From: Thermoproteota archaeon
Lineage (GTDB): Archaea > Asgardarchaeota > Jordiarchaeia > Jordiarchaeales > Freyrarchaeaceae
Direction: 5' to 3'
Length of the DNA stretch: 64,000 nt
NCBI GenBank assembly: GCA_029258835.1
Contig: JAPDJY010000030.1
Location: 99,606 to 163,605, forward strand
The notes beneath the pieces are model-generated. The model worked only from the letters and a program-made list of their open reading frames with translations, was not told where the DNA came from and did no database searches. Of this stretch, positions 38,772 through 64,000 are shown in pieces. Numbering within the stretch: the stretch's first letter is position 1; every line of letters begins with the position of its first letter. The position numbers were made by a program, and so were the translations under genes.

Positions 38772-39045
38772 CCCTCAACACTCTGAGAACTTCTCCCTCG
38801 GAGAGGCGTGGGCTTACCTCCCTCAGCAGCTCAAAGTACCTGTCAACCAGCTCCGGAGCCACCTCAATCCTAACGCTCGAAAGATACCTTCTCAACGCCT
38901 CATAGATCGCGTAGTTGACGAAGTCACTCCTATCCTTGAAGAGTCCAAGGTCCACCAGGAGGCCGATCGCCCTAACCACGCTTTCAGGAGCCCTCACGCT
39001 GACGTGCACCGTGCGCCTGCCAGCAAGCCCCCCCTTAACCATCCC
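38740..39045 (-). CDS. Ribbon-helix-helix antitoxin
   Basis: VSVRAP...GLFKDRSDFVNYAI; overlaps the PIN gene; start uncertain. Confidence 0.75.
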   Translation of the reverse strand, partial: GMVKGGLAGRRTVHVSVRAPESVVRAIGLLVDLGLFKDRSDFVNYAIYEALRRYLSSVRIEVAPELVDRYFELLREVSPRLSEGEVLRVLRDERGGEKGSG

Positions 39046-39837
39046 GGATACCATTACAATCCCCGTATTACAAATGTAACACAAGAATAAAAGAGTTTCC
39101 ACCCGGAACACCGCCGCAAAAACCGTAGACCCCTAGGCAAGCACCCCAACACGCAACCCACAAAACCCTACCCTACACACCCATCACACCCACGAAAAAC
39201 ATCATCAAACAACTAAACGTTAAACCCCGGAAACAGGGACGGCAACGCAGCCGTCAACCATCAGCAGCCAGCCGAAGCCGCCAGCCAAGGTAAACACCCT
39301 CCTCGCCTCGCCCTCCTCCACCCCTCAGCTAACCCATCCTCCAACGCATTAAAATTCATTAGGCCTTCCCCGAGAACCCCGGAACCCTCTTCCTCTCAGC
39401 TAACCCCCCTTAAAGGCTTAAACAGCGCCAACCTCACCACGCAGCCCCTCGCCACCAGCCACCTCTTCAGCGATAACACACCCTGAGCGAAGCCGCAAGC
39501 AATCACCGCAGCCCTCCGCCGCCAGCACGCCGCCACACGCAGCCTCCCTCACACAGTCCACCTCAACGCTGCCTACAGGGGCGTGGAAAACAAAACTTAT
39601 GACGGCACTCCTCTGGGTGGATGACTTAGATTCCCACTGCCACGCCGCCTACAGGAGAGTGGAAAAGCTTATGGTGGCGCCCACCCTCCTAAGCCGCCGC
39701 AAAAGGATCCACGTCCACGTGCACGCTGAAGCTCCTCTGCAAGCGGCTGAACCGTAACGCTACAACCCCAAAACCAAAGGCCCTCAACCCGTCCCGAAGG
39801 ACCCCCCGTAAGCCGATGCCTTCCACCTCAAACCGGG

Positions 39838-40275
39838 TTAAACCTTCACGTTGAAAAACTCCTCAATAAGCCTCACACACGCCTCAACATGCCTCTTTGC
39901 TCTCTCGTAAGCCTCCGGGGCGTAATCCCTAAAGTACTCGGCGTCCACACCAACTTCATACCATACCCCGCCAGCCCCCTCAGCTCGGAAGCTCCGAAAC
40001 GTTACCCGCCACCCCGTCAACCATATACTTAAACCATCCGGGAACCCCTTTCACCCCGGGAACCATCCTGAGAGCAGCGCTCACATCATGCCCCCTCGGG
40101 TACCCGACTCCAAGCGCCAGCAGGACAGCCTTAGAAGCTTGCTCAACAGCCGTCTGCGACGAGTAAACCACGTCATCCCACCTGCCATCCTCCAAAGCCC
40201 TAAACGCACCCTAAGCCACCTGCAACCCCTCCTCAAGGCGGAAACGGCGACGTCAACGCTCGTAACACCGCTCAA
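39838..40275 (-). pseudogene. HEPN-domain protein, frameshifted
   Basis: AVEQASKAVL and PRGHDV motifs spread over three frames. Confidence 0.75.
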
Positions 40276-40810
40276 AACCTCACAACCTCCCCCGCCCTCG
40301 CCTCCCCGAAAACCCAGTACCGCTCACCACTAGGAAGAGTAACCCTCCTCGCCCCCATCCTCAGCATCCTCTCCCTAAGCGAGCCAAGCACCCCCTCCAG
40401 GAAGCCCCCCTATCATACAGGATCACCCCATCAAGCAAAGCATCAAGATACACCATGTTAAACCTCCCAGCCTCCTCCACGCTCAAAGGATAATTCTGGA
40501 CAACAGGCCAGAACCCACGCCGCAAAGCCTCCCCATACTCCACCGACCTCTCAAGCAACTCCTTCACCCTCCCAAGCTCCCTCACCCTCTCCCACACCGG
40601 AACACCCTCCCACCCCTCAACAACAACCACAAAATCAATATCACTATCCCTACCCCAATCCCCCCTGGCAACAGACCCAAACAGCATAACACTCACCAAC
40701 CCCCCAAACACCTCCCAAAGCAACTCACAATACCTCCTAACCACCGGAGCATAAACACCATGAGGTATCCTATCAACATTCCTAACCTCAAAACCACAAC
40801 GCAAAACCCA
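40272..40810 (-). pseudogene. Minimal nucleotidyltransferase (MNT) with one frameshift in a G run
   Basis: LFGSVARGD...SDID motif. Adding one G near 40405 restores DRGGFLE...RYWVF. Confidence 0.8.
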
Positions 40811-40849
40811 CCACCCCCAAAAGCAAGCCAGAAACCCTAACACCCCTAC

Positions 40850-41470
40850 CCGTCAACCTACACCCCACCAAAAACCCCAACCAGCCCCAAACCCCTAAGC
40901 AACCTCAACCTACCAGCAAGCGTCCCAGAATTACCAACAACACACCTAAAATCACTAAACCTAGCCTCCCCCCCTCCACCAAAAACCTAAGCAAACCCAA
41001 AACACAACGACCAATCAAAAACACCACCAAACCACACACTATACAAAAACACATTTAAAACTTAACCAAAAATACACCAACACCAAAACACAAAAACACA
41101 AATACACCAAACAACCACACCCACCAACCACACAAGCCACCAAACAACACAAACCCAGCAACCCCCAAAAGAAAACACCCAACAACCAACAGAAACCCCC
41201 ATCACCACACCTCAACACACCCCACAAAACCCCAACCCCATCCAAAAACCCCCACACCCACCCCAACCCCCAAGACCACCACTACAAACTTAATGAAATA
41301 ATTCCCTAATGCAAAATCTGCACAAAAAACGTTTAATCAAACCCTATCAAACCTTCAACCCCCATCCGGAAACCCCCTCTACAAGCCAACACCCTAACCC
41401 ACCACCCCGACACTACCCTCACCCTCCTCCACCCCCAACATCCAAGAACCCCCCTACAAGTCGGAACGAG
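40850..41470. repeat. Extremely C/A-rich (G/T-rich on the minus strand) low-complexity tract
   Basis: Very few G on the + strand over several hundred bp. Confidence 0.85.
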
Positions 41471-41639
41471 CATTATCATAATGACAGTTATGATAACCAC
41501 CTCAACCTCCACACCCAGAAACCCTCCTGCAAGCAAACTTTTTCGTTAAGACGTGATAACAAGCTGATAATGTCCTCCAACCCCCAGAGCCCCTTTTACA
41601 AGCCATTTCACACCTCCTCTCAAACAGGGTTGAAGAGCG

Positions 41640-41675
41640 CTCTCAACCCCCATGTCTGGGGACTCTTTTTGCAAG
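41640..41675 (-). CRISPR. Solitary CRISPR repeat
   Basis: 34/36 identical to the main array repeat. Confidence 0.9.
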
Positions 41676-41678
41676 GTG

Positions 41679-46654: not shown

Positions 46655-47240
46655 AAAAGATGCTCTCCCCCCATCAAAAACCTTTCAATATCAACCATTC
46701 AACAAAACTGAAAAACTCAATAATTCTTAGCTAATTCTTAGGCATTTCTTCTTATCAAGATTTTCCTGCTTGGTAAAACTGTTGAACGTCCCAGCCTTAT
46801 TTTAGGTAGTGTTCCAGTTCCCTTTCGCTTACGATCCCTTTAGGGTCATTATTGTCAGCTTTTCGGAATACGGAATAGACACCTAAATTTTGCAAGTAAA
46901 AGATGAAACCTTTTATTAGACTCCTAAAGAATTAAGGAATTATTTTAATGCCCTGATACGGGTAGCATCTAAACCCGGGTACGCTAAGCCCTAGTAGTAT
47001 ATGAGGACTAATTTATAAAAAGCAGAGGAAGTCCATGAGCTACCTATGGGCTTCGAACTCCTCGAGCAACTCCGGGTCTCCCCTCTCAACCGTTCTTAAT
47101 TGTATCCCTCTGGAAATCCAAGAATCCTAACTATGTGGAATTAAATATGGACTCAAAAAAATAGGTGAGGATTTGTGGCTTAAAGTGCCGGGGATATCGC
47201 CAGCTGTCGACGGTTCGAAGCCCACCACCATCGTCTTTAG

Positions 47241-47345
47241 CTTTCAATCCCCGTGCTTAGGGACTCTTTTTTGCAAGAGTAGCTTAAAGTTGTAAGAGGA
47301 CGGTTAAAATTGCCTTTCAACTCCATCTTAGGGGCTCTTTCTGCT
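47241..47345 (-). CRISPR. Mini-array: two degenerate repeats and one spacer
   Basis: CTTTCAATCCCCGTGCTTAGGGACTCTTTTTTGCAAG, a ~36-nt spacer, then a more degenerate TTTCAACTCCATCTTAGGGGCTCTTTCTGC. Confidence 0.75.
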
Positions 47346-47391
47346 TAAGATGAGGCTCACCTTAGAGGGGTGCCGATTTATAAAATTTGAA

Positions 47392-48363
47392 TTATGTTAA
47401 AATATTCCAGATACCAAATTTCTCTATAACAATATCAATATCACAGGCGAATAGTGAGCCGGGGGTGATACAAATTTTTGCAATTTGAGTTATTTTTTGC
47501 CCTGAACCCCTTTCACCCCAGTCTCGCCCAACAAGTGGTTCAATGTCACCCCTAATCAATTTAGCGTCCAGATTTTCAATGTTAACATGGGAAAGGGCAA
47601 TAAAATGCCCGCTTTCGCCACTAACTGTTAATTGTTCTTTCGTAGTATCGATTACCATTCCAGAATCAAATAGGTCGATTTCCTCCTTGTTAGAGCTTTC
47701 TAAAAGTATTTTCACCCTTCCAAATCCATAATTTCTCTCTCCCCCAATCCATATTTCGTTTAATTTAACTTCATTAACTTCAATAGAATTAGTAAATGAT
47801 ATCTCAATCTTGACCTTATTCTTTTCTACTTCAAGTTCTAATGGTATATTCTTTACAAAAAGATAACCTACGAAAATTGTAGGTTTAATTCTTTCATTAC
47901 GCTTTATTTTATCCTTAATAAATTCAATCTCGTGAAGAGAACCTTCTTCTGCTGATCTTGAGGTCTTGTCTAGAGCTGTCGAGACAAAGGAAGAGATAAA
48001 CATTTGTTCAAATTCTTCTGAAGGAACAGACTCTCTATTTTTACACACTCCAAACCTTAGTCCATTCTTGGTATAGCATGGAGCAAAAACCTGTTGAACT
48101 TCTATCTTTTCGTTTCTTCTTCTGTATTCCACAGGGTAAAAGTAGGAGAACTTAATGTTTTCATTAAGAAATTCGCCGACTCTTTGATATACCTTTGGGC
48201 GGTAGTCTTTCATAACACTCTTAGCAACCAGATTTGTTAATGCGCCCCAAACATTCTTCGCTGGGATATAGTACCTAGTTCTGTCGACTATACCTAACCT
48301 TGCACCGTAACCAATGTGTATTGGTGCCTTTGCCTCCAGATAAAGTTTATAGCACACCCACAT
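47392..48363 (-). CDS. cmr3: Type III-C Cas5-group RAMP (Cmr3-like)
   Basis: PIHIG, YIPAKNVWGAL, IGGERNYGFG and PGS motifs; last gene of the operon. Confidence 0.8.
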   Translation of the reverse strand: MWVCYKLYLEAKAPIHIGYGARLGIVDRTRYYIPAKNVWGALTNLVAKSVMKDYRPKVYQRVGEFLNENIKFSYFYPVEYRRRNEKIEVQQVFAPCYTKNGLRFGVCKNRESVPSEEFEQMFISSFVSTALDKTSRSAEEGSLHEIEFIKDKIKRNERIKPTIFVGYLFVKNIPLELEVEKNKVKIEISFTNSIEVNEVKLNEIWIGGERNYGFGRVKILLESSNKEEIDLFDSGMVIDTTKEQLTVSGESGHFIALSHVNIENLDAKLIRGDIEPLVGRDWGERGSGQKITQIAKICITPGSLFACDIDIVIEKFGIWNILT

Positions 48364-48367
48364 GTGA

Positions 48368-48994
48368 TCACCTTAAAGACCTGGCCCTGTAGAGGGCGTA
48401 GGTTAGCATTTGCTCTAAGATTTGTTTAATGAAGAACATTTGGGGTATATCACTGCAAACTTCTAGAACCTCGTCTCTTAATTTATCGGGATCGCCACTA
48501 AATCTACCCTCTGCTCCGAAAATTTCGTGTAAAAATTTAGACATTTGATACTTAATTGCACAATAACTTTCTTCCTCTTTCTTAGACTCAATCCAGACTA
48601 TAGAAGCAAAGACACCCTCTGTTGATAATATACCCAAGACTTTTCTTAGGGAACTTTCACATTCGTTAGCAAAATCAGAAAAATTCCTTTCTCTAGTGAA
48701 CTTTTCAATTTTTTCTTCATCGCTAATATTCGAACTTTGAATCCTTTCTGCAAATTTTACAAGGTTATTAAGTACACCCATTTTTGTATAATTATTAAAA
48801 TTTTTTACATCTTCAGGCAAGGAATTGATAACAGCTCCATAAATGTCCTTTGCAACTTTTATCAGATCTGTCAAGTCCTTCTTCTGTAGCTCTTTAAGCT
48901 TCCTATTCAGCGTGTTGTATATTTCTAGAGCATAGTCACAAATTCTGAATCCGTACTCAGCGCATTTTTCATCAATGTTGACGTTTTCAACCAT
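48368..48994 (-). CDS. cmr5: Cas11 small subunit (Cmr5-like) with insertion
   Basis: All-helical; LRKVLGILSTEGVFA and LEQMLTYALYRARS; position in the operon. Confidence 0.8.
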   Translation of the reverse strand: MVENVNIDEKCAEYGFRICDYALEIYNTLNRKLKELQKKDLTDLIKVAKDIYGAVINSLPEDVKNFNNYTKMGVLNNLVKFAERIQSSNISDEEKIEKFTRERNFSDFANECESSLRKVLGILSTEGVFASIVWIESKKEEESYCAIKYQMSKFLHEIFGAEGRFSGDPDKLRDEVLEVCSDIPQMFFIKQILEQMLTYALYRARSLR

Positions 48995-48996
48995 TT

Positions 48997-50175
48997 TTAC
49001 ACTTCCTTATTTGCTTCTTCCCAGATAGAAGCTATCTTTTGTGCTTCTTCACTAATCGATTTAACCTTCTCTTTTAGCTCAATTATTCTTGCACTTATTT
49101 CCTCCTTCTCTTCTGGTTCCGCTTTCTCTAATCTCTTTTCTAATTCTTTTACCTCATTTACGAAATTTTGGGCTTGTATTTCGCTCAATTTCACCTTGTC
49201 ATACCGTTTATCCAGACCAAATAATTTTAACCTGCCAAACCCCCTCGTCCCCATCCCCCCGACGCCCAAGAACTCGAATAACACGAATCCGGTTTCTACA
49301 GTACTGACAATATCGTTTAATCCTAAACTCAATCCAAAATGTTCAGGCTTTTGGTATACAACATCAAAGTAGAATATCGTTGTTCTCGGTATAGCTTCGT
49401 ACGTAAATAACGCACCTTCTTCAGCAGCTCCAGTAGTCGGATCTATTGAAACCGACGTCCTCACCTCCAAGTTGGAATTTACTATCTGAGAAAACACCGA
49501 GTCGCTGACAATAACGAGTCTTTTAAATACATCCTCCACGTCAAAACCTCTATTTTTAAATTTCAACCGACTGCCATCTGCCTCAAATGTCGTTTCTGAA
49601 GTTATGCTATGCGTTATAACTTGACCATTTTCCCTTTTCAATTGAAGCAATAGCCAGCCAAAATTCAGGTATCCAACGTTTACTAGCTTTGATTCTAAAT
49701 ACTTCGACACTATGCATAACTCACTTTCGTCAAGATCCTGCCATGCAGCTTGGTCAACCTTCAATTCCCTAAGCCTACTTGGACAGGTAACCCAGATCGG
49801 GCCTATAAGAGAAGCAACCGGGAAGAACAGTATTTTTGCATCTGAAAATAGAGCTAAACCCTGGAGACTTTTAGGTTTTTCAACTAATTCACTGTCGGTA
49901 TATCCAAACGAAACGCATATAGGGCAGTCTTTGTTTCCCTTAGGGCATCTTCTTTTATGTTCTTCCTTGCTTGCACATGCAGGTTGCCTAAATTGAAATG
50001 CTGCATATGCCCTTGTTGCGCCTTCTATACTCGTCCCCGGTATTTTTGGTACTCCATCAAAATCCCTAAGCGTTGGATTGTCAACTCTTCCGAGCGTGTA
50101 GCCTCCTGTGCCAACGTGTATTGGGTCTATCGCCATTCCGAAATAGATTTTCTTCTCGTATATTTCATCCACCAT
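48997..50175 (-). CDS. cmr4: Cas7 RAMP Cmr4
   Basis: DPIHVGTGG..LGRVDN, PKIPGTS, GALFTYEAIP and GGMGTRGFG motifs. Confidence 0.93.
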   Translation of the reverse strand: MVDEIYEKKIYFGMAIDPIHVGTGGYTLGRVDNPTLRDFDGVPKIPGTSIEGATRAYAAFQFRQPACASKEEHKRRCPKGNKDCPICVSFGYTDSELVEKPKSLQGLALFSDAKILFFPVASLIGPIWVTCPSRLRELKVDQAAWQDLDESELCIVSKYLESKLVNVGYLNFGWLLLQLKRENGQVITHSITSETTFEADGSRLKFKNRGFDVEDVFKRLVIVSDSVFSQIVNSNLEVRTSVSIDPTTGAAEEGALFTYEAIPRTTIFYFDVVYQKPEHFGLSLGLNDIVSTVETGFVLFEFLGVGGMGTRGFGRLKLFGLDKRYDKVKLSEIQAQNFVNEVKELEKRLEKAEPEEKEEISARIIELKEKVKSISEEAQKIASIWEEANKEV

Positions 50176-50590
50176 TTCCGCCTCCTGAAATACTTATCCT
50201 TTTTAACTCCAACTTATCATAAACATCATCATCTGAAATAATTGAACGATCATACGTTTCAGCAGAAGCAGCTATTAAAGAGTCAAAGAAGGTTGCCCCA
50301 TGCCTATTTTCTATTGATATTTGCCTTAAAATTAAATTCTTATCGAGAGTTTTTATCTCTTTTATCCCATATTCTTTACAGATCTCATTAATTTTCTGGA
50401 AGATTACTTTGACTGCACCAGTCTTCCCTCGATTTCTCAGCACTATATAGGTTTCTAAGAGTGCAATGTCAGAAACAGCAACGTTCTTAATCTCTCCTGT
50501 TTTGATCTTCTCTAACACTTTAATAACATCATGGTGTCTTGGATCACTAGGATTTAATCCAAATATGAACTCTGTATCAAGGATCGGCAT
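50165..50590 (-). CDS. VapC-like PIN-domain ribonuclease
   Basis: Acidic residues present in ILDTE, LLE, FFDS and ISDD. Confidence 0.9.
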   Translation of the reverse strand: MPILDTEFIFGLNPSDPRHHDVIKVLEKIKTGEIKNVAVSDIALLETYIVLRNRGKTGAVKVIFQKINEICKEYGIKEIKTLDKNLILRQISIENRHGATFFDSLIAASAETYDRSIISDDDVYDKLELKRISISGGGNGG

Positions 50591-53500
50591 TTAAACCACC
50601 TTGTGACAGCAACCATTTTTCAGCTCTCTTTCTCTCCTCTTTACTATATTGAAAATCTATAAAAAACGAAATAACATCAAACGGACTTAATTCCTGCTTT
50701 AACTTTATAAATAATTCAACAGCATCAAAGAACGAACCATCGTTTATAGATTTGATTAAAAAGTCTTTTTCCTCCTCCCCCAGCTTTACGTTCACATTTC
50801 CAATCGTAGATTCTATAAAGTCCTCTATTAACCCATTCTTTCCCCACTCTCTAATCTTATCCGAGCAGACATACATAACTTTCATGATTTGAGACTTTGT
50901 AAATTTGCCCTTCTCCGGATTAAGTATTTCCCATAGCTTGATTAACTTCCCCAATTCTTCCAATAGGTAAGGTCTTGTCCCGGTTTTCCCCAGTATAGAA
51001 TGAGCTCGCTTTGACGATTCAAGCATCACTATATTAAACCTATTTTGAGTAGATTCTAAGTATTCATAGTCAAAAAAGTTATGATGAACTTTTATTTTGC
51101 CGCCATTAATTTCCAGCATAGGTCTATATTCATTATGATCTTCTCTTACTGTACAATAATACCAATCTTCACTTCCATCATCAAACTTTGGTACAAAATT
51201 CCACTTTAACTTATCAATTATGAAAATATCTTCATTCCTTTTAATTTCATAACTCTTCTCTTCATCTATCCTTCTAAGAGCTTCACTCTCAAACTCTTTT
51301 AGAAGCCTTCTCCCGGCATCAAGTACGAGATAAAGAGGCTGTTTGTACTTGAAATATATTACACCAAAGTTTATACTAAGCCTTCCAAGTACTTTATCAA
51401 ATCTATTAAAAAATAAGGACTTTATCCTTGTAATAATTGCTAACGCGTACTTTGCTGGACATAAGAACATAAATTCGCCAGCAGTCGTATACACCGAGAT
51501 TACTGGTATAAATTCTCTAATCTCTACATTTCTTATTCTATAAGCATCTTTACTACCATCCTCCCACTCTACTTCTATTTCCTCTCCTGAAAATAATTTT
51601 ATGATTTCCTCTTCTGGGATTTCGTCTAGTTTTTTCCCATTTCTTGTGTAATCGAGATAGTCTATGGTAACTATCTCCTTTTTCCCACTTATTACCGTGC
51701 CCAATTCTGATTTTCCAAGCACTCTTTCTTTTTTCAATTCCTTATCAATTTCCAAGATTAACTGTTTTCTTTTATCCAAAAACTCCTTTGCTATTTGTAC
51801 TGACTTCTCTGAAAACTCTTCAAATTCTTTCCACACTCTTCTTAAGCGTGAAGGGGAGGCAGGTTTTTTGGAAAGTATTTTACACAATTTTACTTTTGCA
51901 TCTTCAGAGTACTGCTCTAACTCAGAAACAAAATTCTCAGCTTCTGCATTAATCACTAGTCGAGAATGCATTTTATCCATCAGATATTTAACTCGTTGCA
52001 GAAATTTTTCTCTCTCTTCAACCGACCTAATGCCTTCCTGAGTGCTCTGCAATTCTCTTTTTAACTTGAACAAATCATCAATAACTGAAGTTTCTTCGAA
52101 TTTTATATCCTCTACCACTTTGGTTTTTCCTTTAATTAGTCCACCAAGCCCCCTTAACACCTCATCCAACTCTAATATTCTACTTTGAAAGTTTTCTTTC
52201 GTTAATCCCTTCCACCAATTTCTTAACTTGACATAATATTCCAGAAGTTCAATATTATTTCTCTTCCAATACGTTTTGTTATCATTTTTATAAATTTCTG
52301 GATCAGCTCCGTAAATGGTTCTAGTAGTTTCCTTTATGTATTCTCCATTCAACCATTTATCGGCAGGCCAAATTTTTCCAACAATTAAAGCTATCATATT
52401 ATTTTCATCTCTTATCTGATCAAGCCATACCGTCTCTTCCTTCCCCAATCTCTTTATTACACCCTCTAACCTGAGTTCATAACAATATTTGCATAATCTT
52501 TCACCTTTAATAGAGGCAACCCCTTCAGGAATTGGGTATTCTGGAGCATAACCACATACATAGCATTTTTCTCTTGGTTTTTGCCTCAACTTATTTGAGC
52601 CACATTTTGAACATTTATCAAGTTTTGCAGAACTAACACCAGTTTCATTACACTCATCACATTCCCACATCCAGCCTTTCTCCCAATCTTTTACCCAAGG
52701 TAGACTTCTTGCTTCTTGGCCAATCCTGTAGGGGAAATTCACATTTTCAGCAGCGATCTTTTTTGCGTTCTCGATTAGAGGACCAATATATTTGCTTGCT
52801 TCTCCATTCTTTCCACCACAAACCTCAACTAATGGCACAATTAGACCATTAGTTCCACTGATAACAGTTAAAAATATTCTTTTTCGCAATTCGCTTATAA
52901 TTTCATTTCCTTTATCAATTGACGTTAAATCTGGTATCAGAAAGCACATAACGTTTAAATCCTCATATATCAGATTACCAACAGGAATTTCAAATTCTAC
53001 GATCTCTCTAATTTTTCTTTTCACTTCATCGAATTTCTCAAACCTTCCTATGAAGTCAGGGAGCTTATTAACCTTCGTAATAAAGCTATAACCATCAAAT
53101 CCTACTACAAGAAGTTTAAATCCAACCTTTTCTGAGACATTCATTTCTTTAACTCTTTTCCTGAACTCTTCATCTGAAATACAACCTACAAGAATTGATT
53201 TAGTAATTGAACCCACCATGTATGCATGATCCACGAGCTTAACATCATTCGATGGTCGTCGTGTCTCAGCTAACGAGAGTGAAAAGAAATTATTGATTAA
53301 AGTTATTAGTTTCTCTCTAAGTTCAAAACTAAATCCCCCTTGCCTTGCTAATTGACCTATTAATTCAGATAGCCTTTTATATAACTCCATTCTGGCGGAA
53401 CGAAGAGGACTCTTTGTACCGTTCATCTTCAGAATCAGAGTTCTTTCATTAAGGTAATCGGAAAGCTTCTCTTCATAACCAAATGGAGTTGCGATAAAAA

Positions 53501-53870
53501 CTTCATCAAAACCAACATCCCTTTCCTCATGAACCCCTCTGTCCTCCCATGAATCCTGATTGTCGGCTATTGAAATGATCTTTTCAATAAGATTTGTAAG
53601 GTTGCGTCTTTCATGATGATTCTGAAATCCTTCTATTTTCACTCCCTTTAACCACTCTGGGACATCTTTGTTAAATATTTCATCTAATGATTTAGAGAAA
53701 AATTCACTAAGCGTACTTGGAACATCCCCACTTTTAACATCCTCTTCATAACGCCTTGCATGTTCTTTATATAACTTCTCATCCAACTTCCCTATATCAT
53801 GTAAAAACCCCATAAGTTCAACGGAAAGTATATAGTCTCTAAACTTGCTAAGAGTTTGGATTTTGCTCAT
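50577..53870 (-). CDS. cas10: Type III-C Cas10 (Csx11) with HD domain and degenerate Palm domain
   Basis: LHDIGK, AETRRPSND and SPSRLRRVW motifs; no GGDD (YTTAGEFM instead). Confidence 0.92.
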   Translation of the reverse strand: MSKIQTLSKFRDYILSVELMGFLHDIGKLDEKLYKEHARRYEEDVKSGDVPSTLSEFFSKSLDEIFNKDVPEWLKGVKIEGFQNHHERRNLTNLIEKIISIADNQDSWEDRGVHEERDVGFDEVFIATPFGYEEKLSDYLNERTLILKMNGTKSPLRSARMELYKRLSELIGQLARQGGFSFELREKLITLINNFFSLSLAETRRPSNDVKLVDHAYMVGSITKSILVGCISDEEFRKRVKEMNVSEKVGFKLLVVGFDGYSFITKVNKLPDFIGRFEKFDEVKRKIREIVEFEIPVGNLIYEDLNVMCFLIPDLTSIDKGNEIISELRKRIFLTVISGTNGLIVPLVEVCGGKNGEASKYIGPLIENAKKIAAENVNFPYRIGQEARSLPWVKDWEKGWMWECDECNETGVSSAKLDKCSKCGSNKLRQKPREKCYVCGYAPEYPIPEGVASIKGERLCKYCYELRLEGVIKRLGKEETVWLDQIRDENNMIALIVGKIWPADKWLNGEYIKETTRTIYGADPEIYKNDNKTYWKRNNIELLEYYVKLRNWWKGLTKENFQSRILELDEVLRGLGGLIKGKTKVVEDIKFEETSVIDDLFKLKRELQSTQEGIRSVEEREKFLQRVKYLMDKMHSRLVINAEAENFVSELEQYSEDAKVKLCKILSKKPASPSRLRRVWKEFEEFSEKSVQIAKEFLDKRKQLILEIDKELKKERVLGKSELGTVISGKKEIVTIDYLDYTRNGKKLDEIPEEEIIKLFSGEEIEVEWEDGSKDAYRIRNVEIREFIPVISVYTTAGEFMFLCPAKYALAIITRIKSLFFNRFDKVLGRLSINFGVIYFKYKQPLYLVLDAGRRLLKEFESEALRRIDEEKSYEIKRNEDIFIIDKLKWNFVPKFDDGSEDWYYCTVREDHNEYRPMLEINGGKIKVHHNFFDYEYLESTQNRFNIVMLESSKRAHSILGKTGTRPYLLEELGKLIKLWEILNPEKGKFTKSQIMKVMYVCSDKIREWGKNGLIEDFIESTIGNVNVKLGEEEKDFLIKSINDGSFFDAVELFIKLKQELSPFDVISFFIDFQYSKEERKRAEKWLLSQGGLNADP

Positions 53871-54789
53871 TTACCATCCTCCTATATTCATTCTCAACCA
53901 TTCTCTTGAACTCTTCAAATGACGCATTGCTCTTCGCCTGACCGTTAACCCTCACTTTAATCAATTTTTCTTCAACAACACCATATCCACTCGTCTTCTT
54001 AGCAGAAAATCCATATTCAAGCATCATTTTTGGAATTGCTTCTTTTAAAATGTCTAAATCTTCCTTAATCTCATTAAGTGCCATTTTTCTATCTTCTTCC
54101 CTTTCAGAAGAGAGTTTTTCTATTAGATCAAACGGCAGATAGATCAATTTAAATTCTCCTTTAGCACCCTCAGAGGCTATTTCGAATAATATCGGCCCCC
54201 TCACAGGCGTCTTCTTTACTCTGTCTAGAGGAGTAATCACATCCAAGCTTATTCTGTCCAGGACCGTAGAGTAGAAAAATAACCTCCCCTGTTTACTTTC
54301 TTTGCCCTCTTTTTCGTTTCCAAACAATCTAACTTCAAATTCTGGCGCTGCTATATCTTTTATAACACGTCTCAATGCACCTTTCCAAGTAGTTGAGCGG
54401 ATATACGGAATTTTGAAAACTTTTTCCTTAACTATCGGGTTATCTATAATGTAGAAGTCCTCATCGTCCCTACTTAGATAGGGCTTCCTCAACTTAAAAC
54501 TAATCCTTATAAATAGATAAGGAATAGTCAGATTGCATAAATCACCCAAGTCACTTTCTATTAATCCTTTAAGAAGGCTTTTCTCCGATGTAATTTTTCT
54601 TGGGTACTCCCTGATGATCCACTGTTTATATTTGTTCTCTCTTGCCCATTCTTTATTTTCTCTAGTAGTTAGATGTAAGGATGCCAGCTTTACTTTCTGG
54701 TAGGCATCACCAACCACCCTTTCAAGTTTACGGAAATCAGCCCCTCTCCTTCGATTATCCCAAAATTCAGCATAAATGTCATACTTCAT
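53848..54789 (-). CDS. cmr6: Cas7 RAMP Cmr6-like
   Basis: PYLSRDD, TWKGALR, RLFGNE and YGFSAKKTSGYG motifs. Confidence 0.88.
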   Translation of the reverse strand: MKYDIYAEFWDNRRRGADFRKLERVVGDAYQKVKLASLHLTTRENKEWARENKYKQWIIREYPRKITSEKSLLKGLIESDLGDLCNLTIPYLFIRISFKLRKPYLSRDDEDFYIIDNPIVKEKVFKIPYIRSTTWKGALRRVIKDIAAPEFEVRLFGNEKEGKESKQGRLFFYSTVLDRISLDVITPLDRVKKTPVRGPILFEIASEGAKGEFKLIYLPFDLIEKLSSEREEDRKMALNEIKEDLDILKEAIPKMMLEYGFSAKKTSGYGVVEEKLIKVRVNGQAKSNASFEEFKRMVENEYRRMVNEQNPNS

Positions 54790-55736
54790 TTTAAACCCTC
54801 TAAAATCTCTTCACCCGTTTTGAAATTTAGAGGAGAACGTAACAATTCTTCCAATCTTTCCCTAATTTCTGCAATCTCATCTTCCCCCCTAACATATCCA
54901 AAAACTTTGTTTGCAGCTTCAAATGAGAAAATCTTTTTAGTTACACCCCTCTCCCCTCCCAACCACTTGTTAAATTCTTTTTTAGGATCATCAAGGTACT
55001 TCTGAGGGTTATTGAGATCTCTTCTCACAATCCTGTTCATCCCTTCTCTATCCAGATGTTGACCTTCTACTATCCAGTAAAATCTAAAGTTAAACCACTC
55101 TTTACTATTGTCCCTCCCTAATTTCCTTTTATTTTCCTCAAGCCAACCTCTCACTCTACCCACATTTACAAAAGTATCCCACCTTTCAATTCCCCCATAA
55201 TCTTCTACTTCTATCAATCCATAATCAGTCCCCCACCTACCATCAGGCTTCCACGTTGTCCTACCTCCAATAGCCCCATAATTTTCAATAATCCACAAAG
55301 TCTTTTTAAATAGCCACTTTTGCTCGGGACTTAAATCTGAGATGAAGTGGAAGCTCCACCACATAGTTCTATTCGGTTTCAATCCCGATCGAGGACCTCT
55401 TCCCACATCCACATCATTACCCTTTATTCCACCTATCTCCAGTCTAAACCTCCTACTCCAACCCGTACATCCAAATAACTGGCATGCTGGACAAATTTGC
55501 TCATCTAAAGCTTCTTGAATAGATCTTCCCTCCTTAATAGCCCTTTGAAACCTCCCTTGATCCAACTCACATTTCCCTTTAGAAGTTGGATCACAAGCAT
55601 AACCACCCAACCCCCTAACCAAAGCCTCATACCACCATCTAAGGGAACCAATAACTCCAGTTTCCTTAATTCCACTACACTTCCCATCAACATCTCCTGT
55701 CCAAATCAACGTCAATGCTTTAATCTTAACCCTCAT
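54786..55736 (-). CDS. cmr1: Cas7 RAMP Cmr1
   Basis: IWTGD, TGVIGSLRWWYEAL and CPACQLFGCTGW motifs. Confidence 0.92.
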   Translation of the reverse strand: MRVKIKALTLIWTGDVDGKCSGIKETGVIGSLRWWYEALVRGLGGYACDPTSKGKCELDQGRFQRAIKEGRSIQEALDEQICPACQLFGCTGWSRRFRLEIGGIKGNDVDVGRGPRSGLKPNRTMWWSFHFISDLSPEQKWLFKKTLWIIENYGAIGGRTTWKPDGRWGTDYGLIEVEDYGGIERWDTFVNVGRVRGWLEENKRKLGRDNSKEWFNFRFYWIVEGQHLDREGMNRIVRRDLNNPQKYLDDPKKEFNKWLGGERGVTKKIFSFEAANKVFGYVRGEDEIAEIRERLEELLRSPLNFKTGEEILEGLK

Positions 55737-56056
55737 GCTACCACTTTCTCTTAAACACTTAATCCAAAACTGAATAATCCCCTACAATCCTCTTATATCT
55801 AACCCCCATCAGATCTCCAACATCCTAACAACTCCTTCAAGTAAAACCATCAGCACTTCAGAATAACAAACCCCCACACAACCCCCTCCAGCTATCCCAC
55901 TCAACATAAATAGTACATCTAAATTTCCCTTAAACGAATTCAATACCAATTCCCGCTCCTCCCAACCATCATCACCTACGAAAATGACCCATGCTTGGAG
56001 AACCCCTTCTTGCCTAAAAACAAGCCTATGCATCTTTACCCCAAACAACTGACTCG

Positions 56057-59000
56057 CTTTCAATCCCCATGCCTGAGGCCTCTTTTTGCTAGCTGGTTGC
56101 ATTAGCAGGTATGCTAGTTGGCTACTCGAACTTTCAATCCCCATGTCTGGGGACTCTTTTTGCAAGAGTGGGGTTGTCTCGGCTGTTGGTTTCAGGTTTA
56201 TCCGCTTTCAATCCCCATGTCTGGGGACTCTTTTTGCAAGCAGGTCATGTTTGGGCGTAAGGCTAGTGTGGTTAACTTGGCTTTCAATCCCCATGTCTGG
56301 GGACTCTTTTTGCAAGCTACACAGAATTCCCAGACTTCTACGCCGTCTATACCGACTTTCAATCCCCATGTCTGGGGACTCTTTTTGCAAGTCGGGGTTG
56401 CCTGTGGCTGGTTATGGAGGGGTTTATTATCTTTCAATCCCCATGTCTGGGGACTCTTTTTGCAAGTACATCCCGAAGGGGAGGATAGTGCACGCGGTGG
56501 GTAACACTTTCAATCCCCATGTCTGGGGACTCTTTTTGCAAGGTGTGAGGTCTTCGTCTAAGCCATACATTTCCCTAATACTTTCAATCCCCATGTCTGG
56601 GGACTCTTTTTGCAAGGAAAGTTTAGCACCCAATGAAGTAGAGGAGAGACCAGAACTTTCAATCCCCATGTCTGGGGACTCTTTTTGCAAGTTGTGTTTT
56701 GGCTGTTTTTTTGTTTTACAGGTGTAGGTCTTTCAATCCCCATGTCTGGGGACTCTTTTTGCAAGCAAACTCAAGGTCAACTAGGGGAAACACCAATTAC
56801 GCCCTTTCAATCCCCATGTCTGGGGACTCTTTTTGCAAGCAAGAGCAGGGAGGAGGCGTCCGCCTTCCAGACTGCTGCTTTCAATCCCCATGTCTGGGGA
56901 CTCTTTTTGCAAGTTGAGGAAACAATCAGGGTGCTTGGGGAACTGTTCGAGACTTTCAATCCCCATGTCTGGGGACTCTTTTTGCAAGTGATTAGTCCGA
57001 TGTCGGTTGCCCATGTTTCAGCCTTCTCTTTCAATCCCCATGTCTGGGGACTCTTTTTGCAAGGAGAAATGAGCTTAGAGAGTTAGGAGTTAGGGTTTTT
57101 GGCTTTCAATCCCCATGTCTGGGGACTCTTTTTGCAAGAAGACTCAAACACGGCGGTAAGAGAGGCAGAAACCCCGTCTTTCAATCCCCATGTCTGGGGA
57201 CTCTTTTTGCAAGTTGGAAGAAAGGGAAAGACTGTATGAAATGTTACTTTTACTTTCAATCCCCATGTCTGGGGACTCTTTTTGCAAGACGTCTTAAAAA
57301 ACACGCTACCCCTAATCGCAACTCTTCCTCCTTTCAATCCCCATGTCTGGGGACTCTTTTTGCAAGCCTTGCACTGTGCAGGGTGAACTCGGGCTACAAC
57401 GCCAACTTTCAATCCCCATGTCTGGGGACTCTTTTTGCAAGAGAACATGGATACTAGGATGTTCACGGGATGGCAAAGCTTTCAATCCCCATGTCTGGGG
57501 ACTCTTTTTGCAAGAAGTGAAGCAGGTCGCACGGGAGAACGCAAAGGCTAAGGACTTTCAATCCCCATGTCTGGGGACTCTTTTTGCAAGAAACGCTGCA
57601 CACTTGCTATGTCGTCTTAGCTCGTGGGACTTTCAATCCCCATGTCTGGGGACTCTTTTTGCAAGGCACCGTTGTGCATTAGATGAAGCTTGAAAGTGGT
57701 CTCATCTTTCAATCCCCATGTCTGGGGACTCTTTTTGCAAGTTTTCCGGCGGTATGGTTCGGTTGGAGAAGCCCGCTCCGAACTTTCAATCCCCATGTCT
57801 GGGGACTCTTTTTGCAAGAGGCAGACAACCCAAGCCCCCCCCACACATCCCCCGCTCTTTCAATCCCCATGTCTGGGGACTCTTTTTGCAAGGTCTGGAT
57901 GGTTGACAACGCCCCCCGATTCTACTACTTTCAATCCCCATGTCTGGGGACTCTTTTTGCAAGATGCATGACATTTATGATGCAGTTGATGACTGCCACA
58001 CTTTCAATCCCCATGTCTGGGGACTCTTTTTGCAAGCACACGCTTCCTTCCCCTGCCCAAGCACGTGATAATAATCTTTCAATCCCCATGTCTGGGGACT
58101 CTTTTTGCAAGCAGGGTTACCGCCGGGGCAACTGATCAGCTTAGCGCCGGACTTTCAATCCCCATGTCTGGGGACTCTTTTTGCAAGTGTGCATGCAGCA
58201 GCCTGTTTTTCACTCTAAAAATAGCACTTTCAATCCCCATGTCTGGGGACTCTTTTTGCAAGACAGGAGGATATGGCGGTTTTGGAAAAGCGATTTGGTA
58301 CTTTCAATCCCCATGTCTGGGGACTCTTTTTGCAAGTCGATACCGACACTTGGAGGTGAGGAGGAAGAATGAAAACTTTCAATCCCCATGTCTGGGGACT
58401 CTTTTTGCAAGGTTTTTAAAAACGTATACGCCGCCAACCTCTGGATCGTCTTTCAATCCCCATGTCTGGGGACTCTTTTTGCAAGCGTCAGTCATCGAAG
58501 AGATCGAACGTTCACTTTCCAGCACAACTTTCAATCCCCATGTCTGGGGACTCTTTTTGCAAGTCGTTCGCCAGTTGCAGTAGTGTAACAATGTAGTCGC
58601 GTGCTTTCAATCCCCATGTCTGGGGACTCTTTTTGCAAGCTCGTACTTAACCCATTGGCCGCCAAGCTGAACCCCGGCTTTCAATCCCCATGTCTGGGGA
58701 CTCTTTTTGCAAGAAAAAAACGCTTAAGGCAGAGGTGATACGGAGTGTGGCTTTCAATCCCCATGTCTGGGGACTCTTTTTGCAAGAGCGTGGAGCTTGT
58801 ATCTGTGTACACACCGTAAACATCTTTCAATCCCCATGTCTGGGGACTCTTTTTGCAAGTTGATGATTTCACGGTGGAACATGTCGAACCCTTCCAGACT
58901 TTCAATCCCCATGTCTGGGGACTCTTTTTGCAAGTTCTTTTTCGGAGGTGATTGAGAGTGGTGATCTACATTTCTTTCAATCCCCATGTCTGGGGACTCT

Positions 59001-62000
59001 TTTTGCAAGTCGGGACGTTGTCAAGGACGAAGGAAGAATACTCCTCAACTTTCAATCCCCATGTCTGGGGACTCTTTTTGCAAGACGCCTCGCGGAAAAC
59101 CGACTTGTGGGAGGGTCTTTACCCTTTCAATCCCCATGTCTGGGGACTCTTTTTGCAAGTCCCGATCCTGAAGGAGAGTCCACTTCTCCCCTACATCTTT
59201 CAATCCCCATGTCTGGGGACTCTTTTTGCAAGAAGTCCCTGTCGAAGTCGTCCTTGAAGGCGTAGGCTCGACTTTCAATCCCCATGTCTGGGGACTCTTT
59301 TTGCAAGAAGAAGACGGGAGAATTCTAACCGAACACGATAGCTATCTTTCAATCCCCATGTCTGGGGACTCTTTTTGCAAGTCGACCACCCTGACCGACA
59401 GCTCCAAGAGCTGGGCGGCCTTTCAATCCCCATGTCTGGGGACTCTTTTTGCAAGTCCAAGTGGGTTAAGTGGATGAGTGAGGAGGAAAAAAACTTTCAA
59501 TCCCCATGTCTGGGGACTCTTTTTGCAAGACTTGAGGAGGATGACGCCTACTCATGGCTCGAAGACGCTTTCAATCCCCATGTCTGGGGACTCTTTTTGC
59601 AAGAAACATTAGTTAAAATTGCAAGGGGGAACGGCTACGACTTTCAATCCCCATGTCTGGGGACTCTTTTTGCAAGCCAAATCTTTTGGCGAGGCATAAA
59701 TTTGTGGCGATCTTTCAATCCCCATGTCTGGGGACTCTTTTTGCAAGTTCAAGATCCTTGACCAGTTAGACGCTTACCCCACAAGCTTTCAATCCCCATG
59801 TCTGGGGACTCTTTTTGCAAGACGTTGCTGTTTGCTCCCTCACTCCAAGACCTTTACCAGCTTTCAATCCCCATGTCTGGGGACTCTTTTTGCAAGTTGC
59901 CTTCCCGTGTCGCTTGCTGTTTTAACTTGTAAACTTTCAATCCCCATGTCTGGGGACTCTTTTTGCAAGCCGTGTTCATGCGTCGATTTCCTCTGTTTCA
60001 CTTCCTCTTTCAATCCCCATGTCTGGGGACTCTTTTTGCAAGACAGTTTAAACAAACAACCACCTAAACTTACCCAAAAACTTTCAATCCCCATGTCTGG
60101 GGACTCTTTTTGCAAGTCGTGGACAATACTTCGGCGGACTTGAAGTATAGTAAACTTTCAATCCCCATGTCTGGGGACTCTTTTTGCAAGAAGGGGAGGT
60201 TCAGGTTTTCTAGCAAGAAGGATGTTGTAACTTTCAATCCCCATGTCTGGGGACTCTTTTTGCAAGACGTTGAGAGGGCGTTGCGGGGTCTCCTGATGGA
60301 CAAGACTTTCAATCCCCATGTCTGGGGACTCTTTTTGCAAGAAAGCATAATGTCCGTGAATGTAGAAAAACAAAGTATCTTTCAATCCCCATGTCTGGGG
60401 ACTCTTTTTGCAAGGTAGGAATTTTAGGAGGAACAGGTTGAAGAAGGTGTCTTTCAATCCCCATGTCTGGGGACTCTTTTTGCAAGTCCGTTCTGGGCGT
60501 TTGACCTTATTTTTGGTGTGAACTCGGCTTTCAATCCCCATGTCTGGGGACTCTTTTTGCAAGTTCCAGGCGGCCACGGAAAAACGATAACGATAAACGT
60601 CAGGCTTTCAATCCCCATGTCTGGGGACTCTTTTTGCAAGCACACCCCACAGCCAACCTGTCATTCCCAACCACACACGCTTTCAATCCCCATGTCTGGG
60701 GACTCTTTTTGCAAGGAGAAGGATGAGGACGGGTTTGAAACCATCGTCTACACTTTCAATCCCCATGTCTGGGGACTCTTTTTGCAAGCGAATTATCTCC
60801 CTGTGGAACATGTCGAAGCCCATATCCCTTTCAATCCCCATGTCTGGGGACTCTTTTTGCAAGTTGTGTGGGTGTGTGCTGGAAGGTTGTCTACAGTCAG
60901 CGCTTTCAATCCCCATGTCTGGGGACTCTTTTTGCAAGCAGCGGGCGTTAGAAAAACAATATTCCTTTATCGCTGACTTTCAATCCCCATGTCTGGGGAC
61001 TCTTTTTGCAAGAAAAAGTTTGGAGGTGTGAGTGATGGGCAAGTACCTCACTTTCAATCCCCATGTCTGGGGACTCTTTTTGCAAGATGACGATGCCCTT
61101 GTCCTTGTGAACCTTGACTTCGACCATCTTTCAATCCCCATGTCTGGGGACTCTTTTTGCAAGGTATTTCTCCGGGGACTTCACCATCGAAAAATACGCA
61201 ACTTTCAATCCCCATGTCTGGGGACTCTTTTTGCAAGACATGTACGACGTGACGCTGAAGCTTCCCATTATATCGAACTTTCAATCCCCATGTCTGGGGA
61301 CTCTTTTTGCAAGCCGTGAACCTTAGTCATCTTAGCGACGGCGAAGATCTCGGCTTTCAATCCCCATGTCTGGGGACTCTTTTTGCAAGACGGAGTAGCA
61401 ACTGGAGTAACCTCGGAGGCTGACCCGTCTTTCAATCCCCATGTCTGGGGACTCTTTTTGCAAGACGACATGCTTTTCGGCGTCCCCCCGGACGTCCTCT
61501 TGGCTTTCAATCCCCATGTCTGGGGACTCTTTTTGCAAGATAAAGAGGGGGCGGCATTCCCAGCCCAGCTCCGTCAGCCTTTCAATCCCCATGTCTGGGG
61601 ACTCTTTTTGCAAGCAGAAAACCACGCCAGCCCCCAGCACCAGAAACGTCACACTTTCAATCCCCATGTCTGGGGACTCTTTTTGCAAGGGACATGCTTA
61701 CCTACATGGGCGATCAGAAGTAACCTTCTTTCAATCCCCATGTCTGGGGACTCTTTTTGCAAGACCTCTAAACAGTTGTCGTAAGTCCCCCCACTATTGC
61801 TAACTTTCAATCCCCATGTCTGGGGACTCTTTTTGCAAGTCCAATCAGTTGACGAGGGTGGAGGGTCAACCTACAAGATCTTTCAATCCCCATGTCTGGG
61901 GACTCTTTTTGCAAGTTAAGTTACTTAAGAGTTTTTTTGAGGCTAAAGCGAAAACTTTCAATCCCCATGTCTGGGGACTCTTTTTGCAAGCAAAGTTGTC

Positions 62001-64000
62001 ACTGTCGGTCACCGGGTAATAAATTTGTTGTCTTTCAATCCCCATGTCTGGGGACTCTTTTTGCAAGAGATTGGAACACGGTAATAGGCGAGGAAAACAG
62101 TTGTATTGCTTTCAATCCCCATGTCTGGGGACTCTTTTTGCAAGCTCATTACTGGTGCAAGCAACACGGTTAGCACCATCTCCACTTTCAATCCCCATGT
62201 CTGGGGACTCTTTTTGCAAGCCGGACAGAAAGCTAATAAAGCTAACAGCGTTGATGGCTTTCAATCCCCATGTCTGGGGACTCTTTTTGCAAGATGCAAG
62301 AACTAAACTGGATGAAATCCTCGATATAGTCTTTCAATCCCCATGTCTGGGGACTCTTTTTGCAAGGATGATGATAGTAGCGATAAGGACTTTAAGTTAC
62401 TTACTTTCAATCCCCATGTCTGGGGACTCTTTTTGCAAGTTTGAGAAGTAAGACTTTACTGAGAAAAGGAGTTAATGAGCTTTCAATCCCCATGTCTGGG
62501 GACTCTTTTTGCAAGTCTGGCTTGCTTGACAGGGAGCGTTTCAAACGCTATGCCTTTCAATCCCCATGTCTGGGGACTCTTTTTGCAAGGTTGATTGCTG
62601 TGGGTTACAACTCTATTGTTTAAATACTTTCAATCCCCATGTCTGGGGACTCTTTTTGCAAGTTATAAAAATGGCTAAGGGATATGCTTACTTACACGGT
62701 CTTTCAATCCCCATGTCTGGGGACTCTTTTTGCAAGTTGGCTGGGTTGGATGGTGTTTGTTTAAGTGTTTGTTTATACTTTCAATCCCCATGTCTGGGGA
62801 CTCTTTTTGCAAGTGGGGAAGAACAGGCGGAAAGCTGGACATTTTAACAAACTTTCAATCCCCATGTCTGGGGACTCTTTTTGCAAGTGAATCCGACCTT
62901 ACCGAGACTCGCACTTTCCACATCCTCTTTCAATCCCCATGTCTGGGGACTCTTTTTGCAAGCAGAAAAATAAGCCTCGGACTACTGAGACGCCTGACTA
63001 CTTTCAATCCCCATGTCTGGGGACTCTTTTTGCAAGCTTTCTGTAGTGCCTCCTCGTAGCTGAAAAGTGCTTCAACTTTCAATCCCCATGTCTGGGGACT
63101 CTTTTTGCAAGAGCTACCGAGAAAGCCGGAGGGAATCCATGATTTAGCCTTTCAATCCCCATGTCTGGGGACTCTTTTTGCAAGTAAAAAATTCATCCTG
63201 GAAAAACTTGTGGATGAAATTAACTTTCAATCCCCATGTCTGGGGACTCTTTTTGCAAGTTGGGCGGAGAATACGACAACACGAACGAGTTTTTTGTCTT
63301 TCAATCCCCATGTCTGGGGACTCTTTTTGCAAGACAGCAAGGCTTAAATCGGAGTGTTCTTTCCTCTTTATACTTTCAATCCCCATGTCTGGGGACTCTT
63401 TTTGCAAGTGAGGGTGAAGGCGATCTTCGTTAAGAGGTCTTTTATCTTTCAATCCCCATGTCTGGGGACTCTTTTTGCAAGTAACCTTCCCGTTTTCCAC
63501 GCTTGAAAGGGGGCTGACGCCTTTCAATCCCCATGTCTGGGGACTCTTTTTGCAAGACTACAAGCGTTTCAGGGGGGACGTCTTCATATACCACGACTTT
63601 CAATCCCCATGTCTGGGGACTCTTTTTGCAAGTGAGTAGTGAAATCAGAAACGATGAGTTCAGGAAGAGCTTTCAATCCCCATGTCTGGGGACTCTTTTT
63701 GCAAGAAAGAAATTGAGGAACTAGAGAAACAGATTCAGGAGATCTTTCAATCCCCATGTCTGGGGACTCTTTTTGCAAGTTTCCAAGCTGACCTCAAAAA
63801 CTTGCCCATTGAGACGCCTTTCAATCCCCATGTCTGGGGACTCTTTTTGCAAGTAAGTAAGAAGCCTTTTTTTCGAAGTTACGGCTTTAACATCTTTCAA
63901 TCCCCATGTCTGGGGACTCTTTTTGCAAGCGACAGCAGCGAGGTTCCAGCTGGCTCAACTGCTAACGTCTTTCAATCCCCATGTCTGGGGACTCTTTTTG
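56057..64000 (-). CRISPR. CRISPR array of roughly 105-108 repeats, truncated by the window end
   Basis: 36-nt repeat CTTGCAAAAAGAGTCCCCAGACATGGGGATTGAAAG (minus strand) with spacers of about 35-43 nt. The ATTGAAAG 3' end and the degenerate terminal repeat at 56057-56092 put the leader beyond 64000. The count is estimated from length. Confidence 0.99.

Follow-up and report, generated by a model that had tools for sequence, protein, structure and literature searches.

The window described here is a stretch of 64,000 nt from an archaeal genome assembly (GCA_029258835.1, contig JAPDJY010000030.1, positions 99,606 to 163,605), and coordinates given below refer to it unless another contig is named. 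On its minus strand lies an archaeal-type CRISPR operon of subtype III-C with seven genes. Between cas10 and cmr4 this operon holds a gene for a VapC-like PIN protein, and Cas10 itself ends in a short tail that profile comparisons trace to a VapB antitoxin. We present the features of this pair, its distribution among related loci and the boundaries of the cassette that carries it, and we weigh the reading that Cas10 would be the antitoxin of the PIN protein.

Organization of the operon

From high to low coordinates, all on the minus strand, the operon comprises a gene for a Cmr1-like RAMP (repeat-associated mysterious protein) (54786..55736; 316 aa; Pfam RAMPs 9.8e-18, NCBIfam Cmr1 2.5e-18), a second, Cas7/Cmr6-like RAMP gene (53848..54789; 313 aa; Pfam and NCBIfam), a Csx11-type cas10 (50577..53870; 1097 aa; open reading frame (ORF), Pfam and NCBIfam), the VapC-like PIN gene (50165..50590; 141 aa; Pfam PIN), cmr4, which encodes the Cas7 backbone subunit (48997..50175; 392 aa; NCBIfam Cmr4 at 117.3 bits against a cut-off of 87), a gene at the Cmr5/Cas11 position (48368..48994; 208 aa) and a terminal RAMP gene (47392..48363; 323 aa; Pfam, NCBIfam). 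The 208-aa protein yielded no family match in Pfam or NCBIfam; its place is conserved in related loci. The gene order RAMP-RAMP-cas10-cmr4-small subunit-RAMP with a Csx11-type Cas10 is that of subtype III-C. The PIN gene shares 14 nt with cas10 at one end and 11 nt with cmr4 at the other. A preliminary description of this DNA had reported an intact VapC-like PIN gene with these overlaps and no separate antitoxin gene in the operon; the ORF coordinates and the Pfam match agree with the former, and no AbrB-type antitoxin ORF was found on the operon's contig.

Cas10 scored 278.6 bits against the NCBIfam Csx11 profile (cut-off 248.95). GGDD is absent throughout its 1097 residues, and the cyclase site, which lies inside the Pfam Palm2 match (790-859), is degenerate and reads A797-G798-E799-F800 (51471-51482), so that the cyclase/Palm site is inactivated as in other III-C proteins and the earlier characterization as a cyclase-dead III-C Cas10 is borne out. 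The HD motif is kept at residues 24-25, as are the catalytic motifs of Cmr4. Subtype III-C is reported to lack cyclase sites, to have HD in about half of its members and to have no known effectors (PMC11229360; PMC12669027), and a Cas10 without GGDD and with HD matches this picture. No close homologue of Cas10 was found with this query among 40 related genomes. Four CxxC pairs at residues 404-463 (52481-52660) form two predicted zinc ribbons, in which C436, C439, C460 and C463 are invariant in relatives, whereas the first set of pairs (CDEC...CSKC) is not.

The tail of Cas10 and the PIN protein

The Csx11 profile stops at Cas10 residue 1056 and leaves about 41 residues unmatched, in keeping with the earlier remark that the protein runs some 40 aa past its apparent end. 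The tail proper comprises the 36 residues S1062-P1097 (50580..50687, minus strand) and was delimited by alignment and by the junction DNA described below. Its consensus, SPFDVISFF.DFQY.KEE..AE.WLL, follows the last conserved helix of Cas10 (FFD..ELF) in 9 of 35 homologues; the others end 9-15 residues past that helix. A profile search of 1.84 billion representative proteins returned 1233 Csx11-like proteins, and the tail is present in only 6 of the best 150. Where present, it is 81-89% identical, compared with 45-58% over the rest of Cas10, and in the most distant pair 74%, compared with 30%. The 62-residue C-terminal segment that unites the last helix and the tail has 16 invariant positions, down to a Cas10 identity of 30%. 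A conserved Gly-Gly near the end of the tail corresponds to AGGTGG in the DNA, which lies five bases ahead of the PIN start and may act as a Shine-Dalgarno-like (SD-like) site for the PIN gene; this gene thus need not rely on read-through from cas10.

The PIN gene product matched the Pfam PIN family with an E-value of 1.7e-9 and 38.8 bits (cut-off 23.6). Its acidic residues D5, E46, D103 and D121 are invariant or nearly so in 14 sequences, and the position of D103 is occupied by Asn in two relatives. These two proteins (L001:6472-6897 and L054:3550-3969) are otherwise intact and have FFNSL in place of FFDSL, i.e. the third catalytic Asp replaced by Asn, from which they may be weakened as toxins; the equivalent substitution in Shigella VapC (D98N) is found among solved mutant structures. 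A search of the PDB by sequence with the PIN profile gave nothing useful (best E-value 0.11). Modeled alone, the protein reached a mean predicted local distance difference test (pLDDT) score of 88.4. In Foldseek the model matched VapC toxins best (probability 1.0), and PcrIIC1 (8wmm_G) is among its structural neighbours as well; the VIA Z of 5-7 over residues 1-81, at a root-mean-square deviation of 2.5-2.9, is middling.

Antitoxin origin of the tail

Relatives of the PIN protein were sought in one genome per species, and only five more distant ones were found. In four of the five (L010-L013, from archaeal metagenome-assembled genomes (MAGs)) a gene for a protein of about 80 aa lies upstream of the PIN gene and overlaps it; Pfam identifies the product as a MazE/AbrB-type antitoxin (PF04014, E-value ~1e-11). 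The PIN proteins of these four loci are 35-44% identical to that of the window. A free-standing vapBC pair of the same subfamily is also present elsewhere in the same genome, on contig C55 (~9400-10042); its PIN protein is 36% identical to that of the window, and its AbrB-type VapB ends in ...DPFSVLAEVIGEPYREEVDEVKAEKWLEDEC.

The C-terminal third of the free VapBs reads PLP.DPY.VLE.VIGEPYDE..DE.KAEEWL (also written DPYxVLExVIGEPYDExxDExKAEEWL), and the Cas10 tail, SPFDVISFFIDFQYSKEERKRAEKWLL, is collinear with it. The single-residue gap between the motifs is bridged by one VapB (P0058, GDFTY) and one tail (P0011, GDFQY). With profiles of 14 VapBs and 8 tails, hhalign gave a P-value of 5.6e-5 for the full VapB, and for the VapB C-terminus only a score of 27.7, a probability of 89% and a P-value of 2.2e-6. 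When the columns of the tail alignment were shuffled 400 times, the mean score was 7.7 and the maximum 15.5, i.e. none of the 400 reached 27.7. The AbrB DNA-binding domain (PF04014), which Pfam finds in the free VapBs, yielded no match in Cas10 1040-1097, and the tail aligns to VapB residues ~48-78 only; it is thus a fragment of a VapB and not a VapB. Computation therefore supports what the preliminary description had proposed, a tail that appears to derive from the toxin-binding C-terminus of an AbrB-type VapB and to be fused to Cas10.

Boundaries of the inserted cassette

Immediately upstream of cmr4, loci with and without the tail and the PIN gene share the same DNA (GGAGGTGAA and, a few bases on, ATGGATAAGCC...). 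This block, which contains the SD site and start of cmr4, follows '...LKSEI' in the tail-less Cas10 and '...RIGLS' in the PIN protein. Where the tail is missing, Cas10 takes its final six residues from this block (...LKSEI, then GGEQYG and the stop), whereas in the other loci the block encodes the end of the PIN protein (...RIGLS, then GGEYDG and the stop; in the window ...ISIS, then GGGNGG and the stop). The ancestral last six cas10 codons and stop (GGxxxG and stop) can thus be located at 50165..50185 on the minus strand, where they now form the PIN C-terminus and mark the right boundary. At the left boundary the Cas10 of the window reads ...KLKQEL followed by SPF..., versus ...TLKSEI followed by GGE in tail-less proteins. 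From the shared junction DNA it follows that a cassette entered cas10 in frame, just ahead of its last six codons. Its extent was obtained by computation: the reconstructed cassette of about 500 bp (~50186-50687) comprises the VapB C-terminus, a stop and the PIN gene up to about residue 135. The interval flagged in the preliminary description (50165-50700) matches it almost exactly.

The same junctions recur on at least 12 independent contigs from many samples. In addition, Logan contigs from two other studies (low-depth DNA) span the boundary between Cas10 body and tail without differences, and one spans the boundary between PIN and cmr4. Recurring and bridged junctions exclude a misassembly, which had been named beforehand as a possible source of the fusion. 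In one sequencing run (X2, record 8; window 50117-50152) a hydrothermal-vent contig matches the start of cmr4 and then continues with a junction of the tail-less type (GGTGAACAATATGGATAAGCC), which indicates a cassette-free relative in the same sample.

Distribution and history of the pair

About 43 related loci from assemblies and metagenomes were surveyed at the DNA level, each being scored with a tail and a PIN hidden Markov model (HMM); PIN genes were sought on the cas10 strand only. Twelve contigs (the window, L001, L004, L005, L006, L007, L025, L027, L031, L035, L054 and L055) have the tail with a PIN gene directly downstream, two (L002 and L022) have the tail with a broken PIN gene, and 26 informative loci have neither, cmr4 following directly after cas10. 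No PIN gene without a tail was found among the surveyed loci. For L054 and L055 the PIN gene was predicted from the tail alone before the context was known; in L055 it is cut by the end of the contig. A tail in III-C Cas10 proteins without a PIN gene had been named as evidence against a functional pair, and the tail was seen only with a PIN gene or its remnant.

Both remnants keep the tail. In L002 (9174-9365; a Methanospirareceae MAG) the PIN gene is reduced to an ORF of 63 aa made up of residues 28-67 and 121-136, and in L022 (8258-8446), whose Cas10 is 78% identical, a deletion joins the tail in frame to PIN residues 113-141, directly before cmr4. The PIN gene thus decays while the tail stays, and never the reverse, which is the pattern predicted for a toxin-antitoxin pair; likewise, the lack of PIN genes without a tail is the asymmetry expected if a free PIN protein is toxic.

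In quick trees of Cas10 built without the tail, assessed by the Shimodaira-Hasegawa-like approximate likelihood ratio test (SH-aLRT) and by approximately unbiased (AU) tests, the tail-bearing proteins are scattered, and supported branches force at least three changes. A single tail-bearing clade is rejected by the AU test with p 1.25e-8, or 1.6e-4 without the long-branch L005. The tail and the PIN gene must therefore have been gained or lost together at least twice. In four loci without tail and PIN gene (L052, L053, L003 and L023) Cmr4, Cmr5 and the last RAMP are 60-79% identical to those of the window, with a weaker Cmr5 in L053 (32% over a partial match). This identity of the effector genes equals that of cassette-bearing loci, whereas the C-terminal region of Cas10 is only 39-50% identical, a pattern that points to shuffled modules or to a Cas10 that evolves faster around the cas10/cmr4 junction.

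Predicted binding of tail and PIN protein

The preliminary description had likened the tail to a toxin-binding segment. Co-folding of the PIN protein (alignment of 14) with Cas10 1056-1097 (alignment of 8) predicts a complex, with an interaction score (ipSAE) of 0.68 (0.70, 0.67 and 0.68 in the individual runs), compared with 0.00 for the best of three controls. The ipSAE mark applied is reached by 58 of 80 solved complexes and by 2 of 110 mismatched pairs. The runs have at least 95% of contacts in common, and the partner pLDDT is at least 72. The confident part of the predicted interface includes T6, E7, E46, D103 and D121 on the PIN side, i.e. the active site, and extends over residues 1063-1088 on the Cas10 side, i.e. 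the VapB-like motif. In effect the model treats the tail as a VapB C-terminus.

Interpretation

The homology of tail and VapB, the strict co-occurrence, the joint gain or loss, the insertion boundaries and the predicted binding over catalytic residues were all obtained by computation, and in our view they are best explained as follows. A vapBC cassette of ~500 bp would have entered the 3' end of a III-C cas10 in frame, with its AbrB DNA-binding domain gone. The toxin-binding segment of VapB would survive as Cas10 1062-1097, and a VapC-type PIN ribonuclease (RNase) would be made from the next, overlapping gene. The tail would lie in the active-site groove of the PIN protein and mask it, so that Cas10, and hence the Cmr-like effector complex, would be the antitoxin and the masked PIN protein would be carried on the complex. 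Truncation, loss or destruction of Cas10 would remove this last segment of the protein and unmask the PIN protein, which with its own SD-like site would remain and arrest the cell. Such a guard or addiction at the protein level, with Cas10 as the antitoxin at its core, is in our judgment reasonably probable. It would stabilize a costly cas10 that lacks cyclic-oligoadenylate signalling, and it calls for no new mechanism beyond toxin-antitoxin logic.

Several points weigh against it. Binding of the PIN protein to the tail, its toxicity and its neutralization are all predictions, and the favorable co-fold may reflect likeness to solved VapBC complexes, not binding by this copy. The full-length AlphaFold2 model of Cas10 (12 sequences) has a mean pLDDT of 64, with values below 50 for most of 930-1097; it is poor beyond about residue 930 and so does not place the tail on the complex. 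The likeness of tail and VapB is weak: in profile-to-sequence comparisons HMMER gave 4-11 bits, with the best match in every tail-bearing Cas10 located in the tail and in register. In blind HMMER searches of the genome in six frames the two did not find each other (E-values 12-22); the Cas10 ORF ranked about 23rd with the VapB C-terminus profile (E-value 22), and the C55 VapB ranked 23rd with the tail profile (E-value 12). The claim of homology therefore rests on the profile-profile comparison, on collinearity and on context. Nuclease activity is not always kept, as the D103N proteins of L001 and L054 and the two deleted PIN genes indicate, and the free VapB of contig C55 might cross-neutralize the PIN protein of the operon. 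Classical addiction requires an antitoxin that is less stable than its toxin, and a tail on a large, stable subunit may behave otherwise than a labile antitoxin.

A possible, though rather unlikely, alternative is a PIN protein that serves as a target-triggered effector. Masked by the tail in the same manner, which is the core common to both readings, it would be freed or unmasked when cognate target RNA moves the C-terminal domain of Cas10 and the tail is thereby drawn out of the active site, and the resulting collateral RNase activity, perhaps still tethered to the complex, would bring about abortive infection without a messenger, the antitoxin segment being an allosteric latch in place of cyclic-oligoadenylate signalling. 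The tail is attached to the final helix of the C-terminal domain of Cas10, a domain that in solved Csm and Cmr complexes heads the small-subunit filament touching the target RNA. The tail and the cassette were kept while Cas10 diverged to ~30% identity, III-C systems have neither cyclase sites nor known effectors (PMC11229360), and in III-E the Csx29 protein is an enzyme on a type III effector that is switched on by target RNA (PMC13294483). Such an effector would nevertheless require newly evolved allostery, no switch is evident in the sequence, the retained HD and Cmr4 catalytic motifs leave no lost activity to replace, and the D103N variants and PIN deletions make the nuclease dispensable in some lineages. 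Moreover, tight binding is normal for VapB C-termini, and it is proteolysis that removes them.

It is improbable that the tail is a docking peptide only and the PIN protein a constitutively active, uninhibited extra subunit, e.g. for trimming of CRISPR RNA (crRNA) or target RNA, instead of a toxin. The strict co-occurrence and the predicted binding fit this equally, and a II-C Cas9 is known to be bound by an accessory PIN protein, PcrIIC1 (PMC12669027; structural match 8wmm_G); yet of the four acidic catalytic residues three lie in the predicted interface, the tail has its homologue in the segment with which antitoxins inhibit, and docking alone does not predict the asymmetry between the lack of PIN genes without a tail and the twofold decay of PIN genes only. 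Least probable is a hitch-hiking pair, in which the tail would be a neutral leftover of the insertion and the PIN protein would be harmless through the C55 VapB, low expression or intrinsic inactivity: a paralogous vapBC is indeed present in the genome and a single insertion alone would create linkage, but the tail is better conserved than the rest of Cas10 (81-89% versus 45-58%), the 62-residue segment has its 16 invariant positions, tail and PIN gene were lost or gained together more than once, and a C55-type VapB need not be present in the other organisms from which most of the related contigs stem. Neither docking nor hitch-hiking accords well with the asymmetry and with the conservation of the tail. 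A role of the PIN protein in degrading a nucleotide messenger, as proposed for III-D2, was rejected because this Cas10 has no cyclase site.

Comparison with known systems

With free VapBC pairs that have an AbrB/MazE-type VapB the cassette shares a PIN toxin with four acidic residues, an antitoxin coding sequence immediately upstream that overlaps the toxin start, and an antitoxin C-terminal segment predicted to lie over the active site; in both, decay of the toxin can leave the antitoxin part in place. Unlike in free pairs, there is no separate antitoxin gene and no AbrB domain for DNA binding and dimerization, hence no autoregulation; the putative toxin-binding segment is the C-terminus of a 1097-aa Cas10, and the pair is embedded in a cas operon, with which it has translation signals in common.

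In type I and V systems, CRISPR-regulated toxin-antitoxin pairs named CreTA and CrePA serve as guards (PMC9458426, PMC12737573). As proposed here, they have a toxin in the cas locus whose neutralization depends on the Cas effector, so that loss or inhibition of the effector is punished. In both, the role of antitoxin falls to a crRNA-like RNA, by which Cascade is directed to repress toxin transcription, whereas here a segment of Cas10 in a III-C system would mask the toxin by protein-protein contact. The degenerate CRISPR repeat downstream of the operon has no evident link to the PIN gene, though no search for a toxin target of it was made. In its working the cassette would resemble a guard, but it is not a member of CreTA.

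A VapC-like PIN gene inside a type III locus is also known from III-D2, where the VapBC-like module has T and A as individual genes, Cas10 is active as a SAM-AMP synthase, and degradation of the messenger by the PIN protein was proposed (PMC13294483). In contrast, the present locus has no messenger pathway, and its antitoxin segment is fused to Cas10. In III-E, Cas7-11/Csx29 (Craspase) resembles the target-triggered proposal in that an enzyme is carried on the type III complex without a cyclic nucleotide messenger; that enzyme is a caspase-like protease, with no Cas10 and no antitoxin-derived tether, unlike a PIN protein on a Cas10 tail, and its activation by target RNA has been demonstrated, whereas here it is conjecture. 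PcrIIC1 (PMC12669027; PDB 8wmm) is, like the present protein, of PIN fold, encoded in a cas locus and bound to the effector, which is a prediction in our case; it is from a class 2 system, in which it enhances DNA targeting, and the Cas protein there lacks an antitoxin-derived segment. Toxin-antitoxin pairs near archaeal type III modules have been noted before (PMC6546367). A literature search with partial coverage of subscription papers found no description of a Cas10-antitoxin fusion and none of a III-C effector or toxin.

If confirmed, this would be the first case found of a Cas effector subunit that acts directly as a protein antitoxin, and a protein-level counterpart of the RNA-based CreTA/CrePA guards; the segment of Cas10 is the only visible antidote to the putative PIN toxin in the subclade. 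The loci offer a test bed for defence systems that guard against loss or anti-CRISPR attack by built-in toxins, and for antitoxin segments re-used as latches for effector enzymes, and the exact boundaries together with natural variants with and without the cassette ease the design of experiments. The 36-aa tail and the 141-aa PIN protein form a small, portable module with which cells could be made to depend on any tagged protein.

Further features of the window

The seven-gene cas operon is adjoined by a CRISPR array (56033..64000, minus strand) in which a 37-nt repeat occurs more than 100 times and which runs past the end of the window. Read as its reverse complement, the repeat ends in ATTGAAAG, which makes it probable that the array and the cas operon are transcribed in one direction. 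A degenerate repeat (47224-47272) follows the last RAMP gene downstream after ~120 nt, and a near-perfect one stands alone at 41616-41676, 14 kb from the array; either could be a CreA-like regulatory RNA or array debris. The G+C content of the cas operon (47000-55000) is 33-40%, compared with 56-60% in DNA 10 kb away (38000-41000), and the operon looks horizontally acquired. Between 40 and 41.6 kb the plus strand is extremely C-rich (GC skew of about -0.5) and contains short CA-rich repeats.

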